The notes under the pieces were generated by a model that was not told where the DNA came from, did not search any database, and saw only the letters and a list, made by a program, of their open reading frames with translations. Below are positions 23,047-27,308 of a DNA stretch of 39,407 bases, piece after piece. Where the stretch lies: NCBI RefSeq assembly GCF_016903815.1, contig NZ_CP069970.1; one strand, given 5' to 3'. This DNA is from Escherichia coli. GTDB taxonomy: Bacteria; Pseudomonadota; Gammaproteobacteria; Enterobacterales; Enterobacteriaceae. Every line of letters begins with the position of its first letter. The stretch's first letter is position 1. The position numbers and the translations under genes are program-made.

Positions 23047-24078
23047 ATGTCCAATTTACTGACCGTACACCAAAATTTGCCTGCATTACCGGTCGATGCA
23101 ACGAGTGATGAGGTTCGCAAGAACCTGATGGACATGTTCAGGGATCGCCAGGCGTTTTCTGAGCATACCTGGAAAATGCTTCTGTCCGTTTGCCGGTCGT
23201 GGGCGGCATGGTGCAAGTTGAATAACCGGAAATGGTTTCCCGCAGAACCTGAAGATGTTCGCGATTATCTTCTATATCTTCAGGCGCGCGGTCTGGCAGT
23301 AAAAACTATCCAGCAACATTTGGGCCAGCTAAACATGCTTCATCGTCGGTCCGGGCTGCCACGACCAAGTGACAGTAATGCTGTTTCACTGGTCATGCGA
23401 CGGATCCGAAAAGAAAACGTTGATGCCGGTGAACGTGCAAAACAGGCACTGGCGTTCGAACGCACTGATTTCGACCAGGTTCGTTCACTCATGGAAAATA
23501 GCGATCGCTGCCAGGATATACGTAATCTGGCATTTCTGGGGATTGCTTATAACACCCTATTACGTATAGCCGAAATTGCCAGGATCAGGGTTAAAGATAT
23601 CTCACGTACTGACGGTGGGAGAATGTTAATCCATATTGGCAGAACGAAAACGCTGGTTAGCACCGCAGGTGTAGAGAAGGCACTTAGCCTGGGGGTAACT
23701 AAACTGGTCGAGCGATGGATTTCTGTCTCTGGTGTGGCTGATGATCCGAATAACTACTTGTTTTGCCGTGTCAGAAAAAATGGTGTTGCCGCGCCATCTG
23801 CCACCAGCCAGCTATCAACTCGCGCCCTGGAAGGGATTTTTGAAGCAACTCATCGATTGATTTACGGCGCTAAGGATGACTCTGGTCAGAGATACCTGGC
23901 CTGGTCTGGACACAGTGCCCGTGTCGGAGCCGCGCGAGATATGGCCCGCGCCGGAGTTTCAATACCGGAGATCATGCAAGCTGGTGGCTGGACCAACGTA
24001 AATATTGTCATGAACTATATCCGTAACCTGGATAGTGAAACGGGGGCAATGGTGCGCCTGCTGGAAGATGGCGATTAG
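23047..24078 (+). CDS. cre: Cre site-specific tyrosine recombinase
   Basis: 343 aa, MSNLLTVHQNLPALPVDATSDEVRKNLMDMFRDRQAFSEHTWKMLLSVCRSWAAWCKLNN..., recognised as P1 Cre. Confidence 0.98.
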   Translation: MSNLLTVHQNLPALPVDATSDEVRKNLMDMFRDRQAFSEHTWKMLLSVCRSWAAWCKLNNRKWFPAEPEDVRDYLLYLQARGLAVKTIQQHLGQLNMLHRRSGLPRPSDSNAVSLVMRRIRKENVDAGERAKQALAFERTDFDQVRSLMENSDRCQDIRNLAFLGIAYNTLLRIAEIARIRVKDISRTDGGRMLIHIGRTKTLVSTAGVEKALSLGVTKLVERWISVSGVADDPNNYLFCRVRKNGVAAPSATSQLSTRALEGIFEATHRLIYGAKDDSGQRYLAWSGHSARVGAARDMARAGVSIPEIMQAGGWTNVNIVMNYIRNLDSETGAMVRLLEDGD

Positions 24079-24095: not shown

Positions 24096-24112
24096 ATTGC
24101 TCTAATCATTTG
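24096..24112 (+). promoter_or_regulatory. C1 operator-like site between cre and cra
   Basis: ATTGCTCTAATCATTTG, a 14/17 match. Confidence 0.5.
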
Positions 24113-24128
24113 ATATTTATGGTGACAC

Positions 24129-24440
24129 ATGCGGAAGGATTTCAAAATAGACGGAAAATATGTGGTGCTGTCTGTAAGCTCTCAAATTCAGTCACCATCT
24201 GTCATTGTCACCGTAAAGTTGAGCGATAGGATGCCTGATATCGACTCGATATCTGTTGCGTTCCCCGTTAAAAGTATGCGGAGTGCTGAACATTTTGTGA
24301 TGAATGCAACGGAGGAGGAAGCGCGGCGCGGGCTTACTAGAGTGATGGCGGAATTTGGCGAACTCCTGGGTAAGGTAAACAATGCCCTTTCAATCAGTTC
24401 AGCAAGATCCAAAGCGTTAACAGCTTCCATGATGAAATAA
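24129..24440 (+). CDS. cra: Cra (cre-associated function)
   Basis: 103-aa ORF immediately downstream of cre, as in P1. Confidence 0.6.
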   Translation: MRKDFKIDGKYVVLSVSSQIQSPSVIVTVKLSDRMPDIDSISVAFPVKSMRSAEHFVMNATEEEARRGLTRVMAEFGELLGKVNNALSISSARSKALTASMMK

Positions 24441-24571
24441 AAAAAGCCTGGCAAGGAGCCAGGCTGCACAAAAGAGCGGGTTTGTATTCCGCATCCAATC
24501 AATCAAGAAGGAGTATAGCACACAGGTACTGAAGTGAAAAAATGTGATTCGCGATTAACAAAATATCTACC

Positions 24572-24595
24572 ATTGCTCTAATTGATTGCTATAAT
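24572..24595 (+). promoter_or_regulatory. C1 operator ATTGCTCTAATTGATTG overlapping an extended -10 promoter (TGCTATAAT) for ref
   Basis: Operator-like 17-mer at 24572-24588; extended -10 TGnTATAAT at 24587-24595. Confidence 0.6.
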
Positions 24596-24655
24596 TAAGC
24601 CGCAGTTTTTGTCAACTACGAAGACGTTGCCATTACTTAACTCCTTGACATCATT

Positions 24656-24681
24656 GGCGGCCATTAGGCCGCCTTTTTTTT
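24656..24681 (+). terminator. leader hairpin GGCGGCC-ATTA-GGCCGCC followed by T8, 6 nt before the ref ATG
   Basis: Perfect 7-bp GC stem with a T8 run, placed between the C1-controlled promoter and the ref start. Confidence 0.45.
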
Positions 24682-24686
24682 GCCAT

Positions 24687-25247
24687 ATGAAAACAATCGA
24701 ACAAAAACTTGAACAGCGCCGCGAGTGGCAGAAGGCTGCCAGAGAACGAGCGATCGCTCGGCAACGGGAAAAGTTGGCTGACCCCGCTTGGCGAGAATCG
24801 CAATATCAGAAAATGCGGGATTCTATCGACCGCCGTATCGCTAAACAGAAAGAGCGCCCACCAGCCAGCAAAACGCGGAAAAGCGCGGTAAAAATAAAAT
24901 CTCGTGGCTTGAAGGGGAGAACACCAACGGCGGAGGAACGGCGCATCGCCAATGCTCTTGGCGCTCTCCCCTGCATTGCCTGCTACATGCATGGAGTAAT
25001 ATCTGAAGAGGTATCTCTGCACCATATCTCCGGTCGTACCGCGCCGGGTTGTCACAAAAAGCAATTGCCCCTTTGTAGATGGCACCACCAGCATGCAGCA
25101 CCGGCTGAAGTAAGAGAAAAATACCCCTGGCTGGTCCCTGTTCATGCCGATGGTGTGGTTGGAGGCAAGAAAGAATTCACCTTGCTGAACAAGTCAGAGA
25201 TGGAGTTGCTGGCTGACGCCTATGAGATGGCAAACATCATGCACTAA
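24687..25247 (+). CDS. ref: Ref, recombination enhancement function (HNH-type endonuclease)
   Basis: 186 aa from MKTIEQKLEQRREWQKAARER...; Cys/His cluster CIACYMHG...HH...CRWHH. The track ORF start at 24582 lies inside the operator and is rejected. Confidence 0.9.
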   Translation: MKTIEQKLEQRREWQKAARERAIARQREKLADPAWRESQYQKMRDSIDRRIAKQKERPPASKTRKSAVKIKSRGLKGRTPTAEERRIANALGALPCIACYMHGVISEEVSLHHISGRTAPGCHKKQLPLCRWHHQHAAPAEVREKYPWLVPVHADGVVGGKKEFTLLNKSEMELLADAYEMANIMH

Positions 25248-25397
25248 TAAATATATTATTTTTAATCTGAAATAATTGACAACTGACAAGTGACTTCAGT
25301 CAGAATCATCACATGCCCGGTACGGATGGATCCCTTTTCAAATATTCCATGGACGGCACAGTCTGAGTACCGGGCGCTACCTTCAGTTGTATTGCTA

Positions 25398-25424
25398 AGC
25401 CGCCGCTGGTGGCTTTTCTTTTTT
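25398..25424 (+). terminator. hairpin AGCCGCC-GCT-GGTGGCT followed by a T-rich run, ~10 nt before the next start codon
   Basis: 7-bp stem (one G-U) plus TTTCTTTTTT. Confidence 0.4.
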
Positions 25425-25436
25425 GTAGGGGGCGCT

Positions 25437-26078
25437 ATGGATAAGAAAATATGCGTTGTGTCGATGAGCGTCGGCAAACCGGCGTCAATGACTGCTGCAT
25501 GGATCAATAACGAGCTGATAATGGCTGAGCGGACCAGCTACCCTGAACGCCGCCGCGATATGGAACTCCAGCTGCTGCGCGAATTGCGAGAAAAAGAGGA
25601 AAAGGGTTTTATCGTGCTGGTGGAAGAGGAAAACAGCTTTATTACTGGTCGAGTTGGCCAGCGTGTAAGGTTGCGCGATCCCTTCATGAACGGCAGGCCG
25701 GTACTAATTGAGGCAATGCAGATTTATAAGGAGCTGGAACGCCAGAAAGCAATCAAGTTACCGCGCAAGGAATCCGGCAAATACATTCTCCACCAAAGCA
25801 TCTTCGATTCCGAACACGATAAAAAAGGCGATGAATTTTTCAACATCAACTGGAGCGAAATAACGACAGAGCATGTTCTGACGTTACTATGTTGCTTTGC
25901 GACGGAATACAACAACGTTGCCAGCGCCGACTACATCAGGGCAATGGCTGGAGAAGTTGAGGCCCGCCAAGAACCATCGTTACTAAGTCCACTGATTAAC
26001 ATAATTCTGGGCACCCAGATACTGGAACAAAAAAAAGTGCCGAAAGGGGTATTAACAGGCAAGCATAATTATTTTTAA
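25437..26078 (+). CDS. hypothetical protein in the P1 mat position
   Basis: ATG at 25437 preceded by GGGGG; 213 aa. The track ORF extends to an upstream GTG at 25290. No recognisable motif. Confidence 0.5.
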   Translation: MDKKICVVSMSVGKPASMTAAWINNELIMAERTSYPERRRDMELQLLRELREKEEKGFIVLVEEENSFITGRVGQRVRLRDPFMNGRPVLIEAMQIYKELERQKAIKLPRKESGKYILHQSIFDSEHDKKGDEFFNINWSEITTEHVLTLLCCFATEYNNVASADYIRAMAGEVEARQEPSLLSPLINIILGTQILEQKKVPKGVLTGKHNYF

Positions 26079-26171: not shown

Positions 26172-27308
26172 ATGAAAGCAATGGGGAATGAAGTTTATCA
26201 AAGTCAAAAATGCAAGTTGAAATATTCAAAATCTCAAATTGATAGGGCTGCTCAATTGATAAGGCACGGGTGTAGTGACGAAGAAAGGCAGCAATCTATT
26301 GAAATGATACAAAATTTCCGTGAGCTGCATCTTTATCCATTAATGCTCATGAAAAATCATTTAGCAAGAGCAGCTGCTAAGGTTGACAAGGACAAAAAGA
26401 TTCTCGTTGCAAGAAGACTTAAGCGACTTTCTACCATAATAGATAAACTAGAGCGTCCTAGTCTTGATGGAGGCAGAACTAGCAATGCAATTAAATTAAC
26501 ACGGATGCAGGACGTTGGCGGATGTAGGGCCATTGTCAGAAACTTAGACCAGTTGATACAGCTAAAGGAACGTCTTTTAAAAAGCAAATCTGTTCATAGG
26601 ATTGTTAAAGAGTATGATTATCTTACTCCCAAAGACAGCGGCTATAGTGGAATCCACCTTGCATACAGTTGCTTCGATCAGAAAGAGGATCAATATCCGT
26701 GGCGAAAAACAAAGATTGAGATACAGTTAAGAACTCAATTGCAGCATGCTTGGGCTACCAGCCTTGAAATAATTGATACCCTTGAAGGTATCAAGCTGAA
26801 AACTTCAAGTGAAGGGCATCCAGAATGGAGACGATTTTTCTATCTAGCCGGATGTCTTGTAGCGCACGACGAAAAAGCCTGCACTCTTGATGAGCTAGTT
26901 GTATCTCAGTATGAAGGCGAGCTTAAAGAGCTGGAACGGACTTTATCTGTACGGAGGAAACTAAGCACATACACCATCGCCTTAAATTTAACTTCTGACG
27001 CGAATTTGATTAAGAAGTTGCCAAAAAATCATAAGGGGCATTACTTAGTAACAATGAGAAATGCAGAAAACAAGCCCAATACAAAAAACAAAAAAATGTT
27101 CCTAGTGTCTGTTCGCGCATTTAAAACAAAAGAAGCAGATGAAGCCCTTGAGGCCTTAAATAAAGACGATTCTAATCCTAATGTATTGATATCTGTTCTC
27201 GTTGCTACAGATAACATTAAGTCACTAAAAAAAGCCTACCCCAACTATTTTGGCTCAACAAACCAGTTTACAAAATTCTTAGATAAGCATCTTCGTAACG
27301 AAGGATAG
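26172..27308 (+). CDS. capRel: fused toxSAS (RelA/SpoT-like nucleotidyltransferase) with C-terminal extension; CapRel-like
   Basis: 378 aa. RelA/SpoT synthetase-fold motifs: DVGGCRAIV, DYLTPKDSGYSGIHL, IEIQLRTQLQHAWA. ~110-aa C-terminal extension without Cys. No separate small antitoxin ORF adjacent. AT-rich relative to flanks. Occupies the slot between the mat-position gene and lxc where P1 has res-mod. Confidence 0.7.
   Translation: MKAMGNEVYQSQKCKLKYSKSQIDRAAQLIRHGCSDEERQQSIEMIQNFRELHLYPLMLMKNHLARAAAKVDKDKKILVARRLKRLSTIIDKLERPSLDGGRTSNAIKLTRMQDVGGCRAIVRNLDQLIQLKERLLKSKSVHRIVKEYDYLTPKDSGYSGIHLAYSCFDQKEDQYPWRKTKIEIQLRTQLQHAWATSLEIIDTLEGIKLKTSSEGHPEWRRFFYLAGCLVAHDEKACTLDELVVSQYEGELKELERTLSVRRKLSTYTIALNLTSDANLIKKLPKNHKGHYLVTMRNAENKPNTKNKKMFLVSVRAFKTKEADEALEALNKDDSNPNVLISVLVATDNIKSLKKAYPNYFGSTNQFTKFLDKHLRNEG

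Follow-up and report, generated by a model that had tools for sequence, protein, structure and literature searches.

A terminator hairpin in the leader of the C1-controlled ref gene of P1-family phage-plasmids as a probable attenuator of transcription

The stretch of Escherichia coli DNA analyzed here (the window; 39,407 nucleotides from contig NZ_CP069970.1) contains, in the region of interest, the lox-cre end of a P1-family phage-plasmid. Over positions 24441-24720 (280 nt), identity is 100% with phage RCS47 and 97.9% with P1 (AF234172), and the features of the P1 record can be transferred to the window at an offset of +22610 (Table 1). The genes of AF234172 follow each other in the order cra, cre, c8, ref, mat, and the ref CDS is preceded by the promoter P2ref, the overlapping C1 operator Oref and a predicted promoter, P1ref. 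The comparison with the P1 reference that the first-pass annotation of this DNA had called for places Oref, P2ref, P1ref and ref at homologous positions. It also corrects the name of the gene upstream of ref, which had been called cra but is c8 (24129-24440), cra being located upstream of cre. The homologues of the Ref protein carry PF16786.

Table 1. Features of the region from cre to mat, in window coordinates
Feature	Position	Strand	Sequence and description	Source or basis
cre	23047-24078			
c8 CDS	24129-24440	+	103-aa ORF; 'putative lysogeny establishment protein' in RCS47	c8 at the homologous place in P1 AF234172
P2ref	24567-24595	+	weak -35 CTACCA 24567-24572; extended -10 TGcTATAAT 24587-24595	position from P1 record
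C1 repressor operator Oref	24572-24588	+	17-mer ATTGCTCTAATTGATTG	consensus match with 3 mismatches; homologous to AF234172 'monovalent C1 controlled operator Oref'
ref leader	24602-24686	+	~85 nt	extent estimated from the -10 position
Candidate antiterminator	24626-24661	+	GUUGCCA (24626-24632) / UGGCGGC (24655-24661)	predicted nascent-RNA pairing
P1ref (predicted)	24627-24654	+	TTGCCA, 16 nt spacer, TGaCATCAT	consensus scan; AF234172 'predicted sigma 70 promoter P1ref'
Terminator/attenuator stem-loop	24656-24673	+	GGCGGCC-ATTA-GGCCGCC; 7-bp stem, 7/7 G-C pairs, 4-nt loop	
U-tract	24674-24681	+	T8 adjoining the stem on its 3' side; no other notable feature precedes the start, which lacks a Shine-Dalgarno sequence	
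ref CDS	24687-25247	+	186 aa, RecA-dependent HNH nuclease; start MKTIEQKL	
Omat operator	25238-25255	-		AF234172 features
Pmat/LPmat	-35 25276-25281; -10 25301-25306	+	TTGACA; CAGAAT	AF234172 features
Long stem in mat leader	25315-25375	+	GCCCGGUAC (25315-25323) / GUACCGGGC (25367-25375)	
Second hairpin	25397-25424	+	AAGCCGCC-GCT-GGTGGCTT 25397-25415, tail TTCTTTTTT to 25424	
mat CDS	25437-26078	+	ATG preceded by GGGGG Shine-Dalgarno	RCS47 annotation

The 17-mer upstream of ref had been described as a C1 operator-like sequence that overlaps an extended -10 element. This assignment has statistical support, as the window contains 8 matches to the C1 operator consensus at this level where 0.14 are expected, and the site is the annotated Oref/P2ref of AF234172. 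The core of the operator, ATTGCTCTAAT, is invariant in the ref-carrying variants that reach this region, the exception being one in which the left half is unrelated DNA. The TATAAT of P2ref (24590-24595) is invariant across all ref-carrying variants. Judging from the position of this -10, transcription from P2ref would start near 24602.

The control of ref by C1 has been demonstrated by RT-qPCR: inactivation of C1 raises ref RNA 73-fold, and the induced level is lower and slightly later than those of ssb, dmt and kilA (PMC4713147). Binding of H-NS and an additional silencing of ref by it have been reported, and expression of Ref causes host stress, a block of lysogeny and a greater sensitivity of P1 lysogens to ciprofloxacin (PMC4713147). 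How firmly Ref is kept in check is therefore relevant to phage-antibiotic synergy, as well as to the numerous P1-like phage-plasmids with resistance genes.

Between the promoter and ref, the + strand contains a single terminator-like element, the hairpin and T-run at 24656-24681. That a perfect GGCGGCC/GGCCGCC hairpin followed by T8 precedes the ref ATG had been noticed in the first pass and can be read directly from the sequence; the gap between T8 and the ATG (24687-24689), which had been given as 6 nt, consists of the 5 nt GCCAT. Reading the sequence between the T-run and the ATG reveals no AGGAGG-like run, in agreement with the earlier remark that ref has no obvious Shine-Dalgarno sequence. 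The hairpin follows the expected P2ref start at a distance of ~54 nt and lies on the transcribed strand, which is that of c8 and ref, and no T-run follows the stem on the minus strand. Folded alone, the hairpin has an energy of -16.2 kcal/mol (z = -3.4; a fold this stable is reached by 0 of 200 shuffles), and its pair probability in the fold of the full leader is at least 0.995. A strict search of both strands for a perfect 7-bp stem with at least 6 G/C pairs and at least 7 T in the 8 positions directly after it yields 3 sites in the 39-kb window and 0 in 100 first-order random sequences. Of the terminators in the window, the ref-leader hairpin is the most canonical one of the intrinsic type.

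The element combines the properties by which intrinsic terminators are recognized, namely a G/C stem-loop in the range of 5-14 bp with a short loop, a U-run on the transcribed strand and the maintenance of pairing. Its short G/C-rich stem, tetraloop and uninterrupted U8 on the transcribed strand are shared with the classical intrinsic terminators of E. coli and its phages. Classical terminators close an operon and precede the promoter that follows, whereas the ref hairpin comes behind the promoter of the downstream gene, with 5 nt between its T-run and the start codon of that gene. Beginning at 24656, it lies between the -10 of P2ref (24590-24595) and the ATG at 24687, which is the position of an attenuator if the start site estimated from the -10 is correct. 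We infer termination itself, as well as its efficiency, from these features of the sequence. A terminator feature at the ref leader was looked for in AF234172 and is not annotated; a second region of the record that was checked has none either, which makes the record uninformative on whether terminators are annotated in it at all. The lack of this feature is one of two points at which the annotation of the P1 record can be corrected.

The variation of the leader within the P1 family was analyzed in 57 related loci, which were collected from annotated plasmids and from a scan of viral contigs and comprise 22 distinct leader sequences. The scan was carried out with the 15-mer GTCAACTACGAAGAC and returned 120 loci, about two-thirds of which are chance matches and ~50 of which are P1-like. 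This 15-nt leader core is unchanged, which is partly an artefact, as most of the loci were retrieved by that very 15-mer. In the 22 distinct P1-family variants, 99.4% of the cells of the terminator stem are paired. All four one-sided changes that preserve pairing in the stem convert a G-C pair into a G-U pair (C to T), and such pairs are valid only for RNA of the + strand; the one mismatch in the stem is found in a plasmid that lacks ref. The loop occurs in five forms (ATTA, ATCA, GAAA, TAAA and GCAA), and the length of the T-run is 7-10 in ref-carrying and 6 in ref-less variants. The preservation of the stem while the loop varies, together with wobble changes that suit the + strand only, shows that the hairpin is under selection as RNA. 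It is the only hairpin of the leader that RNAalifold keeps. A second candidate for a conserved element, a 5' leader hairpin at 24602-24630, is dropped by RNAalifold and was rejected, the variation in it only breaking pairs.

Homologues of Ref can be traced down to ~45% identity, and ten diverged ref loci were compared. Four of these, with 61-67% Ref identity, are found in different gene neighborhoods: L127 and L136 in Salmonella, L128 in Klebsiella aerogenes and L129 in Pantoea. All four have a C1-type operator core, a -10, a leader, a hairpin, a T-run and a start without a Shine-Dalgarno sequence, in that order. The same operator-leader-hairpin layout was sought in Ref homologues of 58% identity or less and is absent there. 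The hairpins of the four distant lineages have a 6-7-bp G/C stem, a tetraloop and a T-run of 5-8 T, and the spacer between the T-run and the start is 5-13 nt in three of them and ~85 nt in L129. The sequences of their stems are GACGGTC/GGCCGTC, GACGGTC/GACCGTC and GCCGCC/GGCGGC. Three stem pairs have changed on both sides in a compensatory manner, with a wobble intermediate, and 98% of the cells are paired; the observed percentage of pairing and the covariation score are matched by 0 of 500 shuffles and the observed number of two-sided pair changes by 10 of 500, all these pairing statistics being inflated by the anchoring of the distant-lineage alignment on the hairpin itself. The leaders are recognizably homologous, as TATAATTGAGTCGCA is common to L136 and the P1-family variant L106, and the position of the ref start is kept (GTG AAA TTG in L127, GTG ATA CTG in L136 and ATG AAA CTG in L128).

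The title of a study by Windle, Laufer and Hays (1988; PMC211533) reports an attenuator and an antiterminator for P1 ref. As far as can be judged from this title, the P1 ref region of that study is the same locus, and nothing substantive differs at the sequence level. The hairpin described here can be identified with the attenuator of the title because it is the sole + strand terminator-like element before ref. On the strength of the title, the ref-leader hairpin is an attenuator already known from the 1988 work on P1, and the present result is a confirmation rather than a discovery. The literature that was searched for mapped ends of P1 transcripts contains no usable data. What is added here to the old attenuator is the comparative evidence that selection maintains the hairpin and that it is inherited together with ref across lineages. 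Further additions are a dual role that includes the termination of cre-c8 transcription, the boundaries of the ref cassette, the start of mat and the lack of support for a conserved antiterminator helix.

The hairpin with its U8 is probably an intrinsic terminator with two roles, the termination of cre-c8 transcription and the attenuation of the C1-controlled transcription of ref. Transcripts arriving from cre-c8 would end at this terminator. Most transcripts initiated at P2ref would stop prematurely in the U-tract, and the fraction that reads through would constitute the ref mRNA. Acting together with repression by C1, with H-NS and with a start that lacks a Shine-Dalgarno sequence, the attenuator would keep the toxic Ref low and slightly delayed after induction. 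The first-pass proposal that the leader hairpin gates ref beyond C1 repression thus gains support from the anatomy of the terminator, from the conserved pairing and, as far as its title goes, from the 1988 study. A damper of this kind fits the 73-fold rise of ref RNA to a level that is lower and later than those of ssb, dmt and kilA (PMC4713147). However, a hairpin that is predicted for more than 99% of the molecules sits oddly with a 73-fold induction, unless read-through is appreciable or the terminator is relieved.

The relatives without ref provide information on both roles of the terminator. In these P1-like plasmids, the sequence is homologous to the window up to 24679, a position within the T-run, and again from 25239, at Omat. 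The ref segment is replaced by a convergent pair consisting of icd and a KilAC-antirepressor gene, the stop codon of the latter being 2 nt from the end of the T-run. Four of the 5 distinct ref-less variants have an intact hairpin. The hairpin proximal to c8 has no T-run on the + strand, and + strand transcripts should therefore run on to 24656-24681. On the minus strand, an RNA of ~65 nt is predicted at 24440-24505. The retention of the hairpin in ref-less relatives points to a job independent of ref, the ending of + strand cre-c8 transcription. Part of the selection on the hairpin is then independent of ref, which speaks against attributing all of it to attenuation.

These observations could mean that the hairpin is only the terminator of cre-c8 and a module boundary, behind which ref was dropped in, so that it has no regulatory meaning for ref. 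Yet P2ref and Oref are situated upstream of the terminator, and their fate is coupled to that of ref. No point change in the P2ref -10 or the operator core is found in the ref-carrying variants, whereas one or the other is deleted or mutated in 4 of the 5 ref-less ones: the -10 is deleted in L003 and weakened in L004 and L101, and the operator core is mutated in L101 and L120. This decay where ref is absent suggests that P2ref exists for ref and that its transcripts are meant to cross the terminator, and it counts against an accident of the junction. The C1 control of ref RNA likewise implies that transcripts from P2ref must cross the terminator. Furthermore, the distant ref lineages, in unrelated neighborhoods, keep the arrangement of promoter, terminator and ref with different stem sequences. 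A boundary without meaning for ref is for these reasons unlikely, although it deserves some weight.

A different possibility is that the ref mRNA originates mainly from P1ref and does not contain the hairpin, in which case the terminator would merely insulate ref from P2ref and from upstream transcription. P1ref, as predicted in the P1 record, matches the consensus at 9 of 12 positions and has an extended -10. According to this prediction, its transcripts would begin within the 5' arm of the hairpin, at about 24660-24663, and would be unable to form it. They would escape the terminator, and the hairpin may then matter less for the output of ref than is assumed in the attenuator reading. The sequence TGNNATCAT is invariant in all 22 P1-family variants, but it is equally conserved in the ref-less relatives, where there is nothing to express. 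P1ref has no operator, whereas ref depends strongly on C1, the sole operator being that at P2ref. In addition, P1ref is known from prediction only and is missing from the distant ref lineages, which keep the terminator. It is improbable, then, that P1ref is the main source of ref mRNA.

The element might also act mainly on translation or on the stability of the mRNA, as a ribosome standby site, an S1-binding enhancer or a processing or stability site. A Shine-Dalgarno sequence is absent in every lineage, in three of the four distant ones 5-13 nt separate the U-run from the start, and the RNA from the U-tract through the first ref codons is predicted to be unpaired, all of which would suit such a function. 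However, a perfect GC stem directly followed by U7-8 is the signature of a terminator and is not needed for standby binding, and the same element ends the transcription unit in ref-less relatives. We therefore give little credence to a function mainly in translation or stability. Finally, it is very improbable that 24602-24681 represents an independent small RNA of ~80 nt under C1 control, with ref expressed secondarily by read-through. In favor of this reading, the unit is served by a promoter and a strong terminator of its own, and ref-less relatives of 84-95% identity have retained both leader and terminator, with the GTCAACTACGAAGAC core unchanged (a retrieval-biased observation). Against it, the promoter or operator is lost or mutated in 4 of the 5 ref-less variants, where an independent gene would lead one to expect the contrary. 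In addition, no Rfam family is found above threshold, and no structure outside the terminator is conserved.

If the hairpin is an attenuator, it is most likely a constitutive damper rather than a regulated device; regulated relief, to which the 'antiterminator' of the 1988 title may refer, is possible. Until the 3' arm has been transcribed, a candidate antiterminator helix (Table 1) is the lowest-energy pairing predicted for the nascent RNA; on its own it contributes -8.2 kcal/mol, compared to -16.2 for the terminator. In this helix 92% of the cells pair, no covariation is observed, the variation breaks the helix, and the divergent variants L092, L091 and L125 have lost it. A comparable alternative helix of 6-7 bp can be formed in L127 and L136 from a non-homologous segment of the leader, and none in L128 and L129. 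A search of the leader for a sensor revealed no leader ATG or Shine-Dalgarno sequence, and its frames are broken by 1-nt indels and by T-runs of 7-10 among the variants. A leader peptide or an N-terminally extended Ref (stop-free from TTG 24582, or from TTG 24627) was rejected on account of the same frame-breaking indels and differences in T-run length. The Rfam search returned nothing above threshold and two sub-threshold matches, one SorX-like and one suhB/mmgR-like, both driven by the shape of the terminator; the better of them, suhB/mmgR-like, has E = 0.18 and 22 bits against a gathering score of 41. As neither a conserved alternative helix nor a leader peptide nor an Rfam match was found, the constitutive damper is favored. 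With the trp, pyrBI-type and riboswitch or protein-mediated attenuators, the ref leader has in common a terminator in the 5' leader and a possible alternative helix that sequesters the 5' arm. In contrast to the leader-peptide and riboswitch attenuators, it has no conserved ORF, Rfam match or conserved covarying helix.

The arrangement at ref can also be compared with the terminators tR1 and tL1 of phage lambda (N-nut) and with the put system of HK022. In these cases too, terminators are located between an early repressor-controlled promoter and the gene that it serves, and a hairpin of this kind is present ahead of mat as well. It is conceivable, though doubtful, that P1-family phage-plasmids have terminators ahead of at least two genes, ref and mat, which in the lytic cycle are passed with the help of a dedicated phage antitermination factor or RNA. 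If this were true, the later peak of ref would be accounted for by dedicated antitermination, and a lambda-like layer of antitermination would exist in P1. In a lesser variant of this idea, the ~80-nt leader would itself be a C1-controlled regulatory RNA. Unlike the lambda-type systems, the ref and mat leaders contain no nut/put-like element that could be seen by eye, and a visual comparison of the two leaders revealed no shared motif. We know of no antiterminator protein or nut/put-like element in P1.

The hairpin ahead of mat had been described in the first-pass annotation as similar to that of ref and as followed by a T-run ~10 nt before the next ATG. It does exist (25397-25415) and lies ~85 nt downstream of Pmat/LPmat, and its tail ends 12 nt before the ATG at 25437. 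The similarity is limited, however, as the second hairpin is weaker, with an energy of -11.6 kcal/mol that is not better than that of shuffles. Most of it is conserved; the loop varies, and in two variants the stem is broken, by a mismatch and by a deletion. The P1 record starts mat at 25326, and the long ORF that results runs through the second hairpin; this ORF was rejected, since indels of 1-2 nt between 25326 and 25437 break its frame in several distinct variants. As the longer frame is not kept, the second hairpin is located in the 5' UTR of mat. The second correction to the P1 annotation is therefore that mat probably starts too far upstream in the record, the credible start being that at 25437. 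In this position, the second hairpin can serve as the terminator of ref and as a mild attenuator of mat, acting on the transcripts from Pmat/LPmat.

The ref gene behaves as an exchangeable cassette. A convergent module of icd and a KilAC-antirepressor gene replaces exactly window positions 24680-25238 in the ref-less P1-like plasmids (loci L003, L004 and L112), and the swapped ref segment is bounded by the T-run of the leader terminator on one side and by Omat, the operator at 25238-25255, on the other.

P1-type C1 operator cores (ATTGCTCTAAT, ATTGTTCTAAT or TTTGCTCTAAT) lie upstream of the ref homologues in phage-plasmids of Salmonella (L127 and L136), Klebsiella (L128) and Pantoea (L129), where the neighboring genes, encoding NinX, dUTPase, a Tad2-like protein and HigB, are unlike those of P1. 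As these operator cores occur in phage-plasmids with non-P1 gene neighbors, the C1 repressor-operator system seems to be common to phage-plasmids well outside the P1 group.

An operator-like site also precedes c8 (see the table). Its core is perfect in the window and in L004 and reads ATTGCTATAAT in P1, whose record carries no operator annotation at the matching position. The c8 gene may be under C1 control in some P1 relatives.

Features of the region surrounding ref
Feature	Position	Strand	Remarks
Operator-like site ATTGCTCTAATCATTTG	24096-24112		c8 starts 17 nt further downstream
Strong terminator AGCCTGGC-TCCTT-GCCAGGCT + T7	24465 to 24445	minus	small-RNA-like unit; shares sequence with the stop codon of c8
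Promoter-like element: TTTTCA and TGcTATACT, separated by 17 nt	24540 to 24512	minus	small-RNA-like unit
Long-range stem of 9 bp, without mismatches	25315-25323 with 25367-25375		mat leader
378-aa ORF	26172-27308	plus	downstream of mat

In the P1 reference record, the annotated start of mat is an upstream ATG equivalent to 25326. Because 1-2-nt indels between 25326 and 25437 disrupt the frame from this ATG among the relatives, the true mat start is likely to be at 25437, behind a GGGGG Shine-Dalgarno sequence. The mat leader also contains a long-range stem.

The ORF that follows mat contains a RelA/SpoT domain (PF04607, E 3e-12) and is a strong match to PDC-S33, a candidate defence family in PADLOC (E 7e-86). 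It resembles the fused toxin-antitoxin alarmone synthetases of the CapRel type, which have been described from P1-like prophages. Its position is occupied by res and mod in P1 and by lxc and ulx in phage RCS47; past mat, therefore, the window is not RCS47 itself.

The gap between c8 and ref holds a small-RNA-like unit on the minus strand (24440-24540), for which the P1 record has no annotation. The promoter-like element and the terminator are about 60 nt apart. The unit folds at -24.3 kcal/mol (z -3.6), and it gives a SorX-like hit in Rfam that is sub-threshold (E 0.03). Its -10 element and terminator are nearly invariant among 30 distinct variants, ref-less relatives included.
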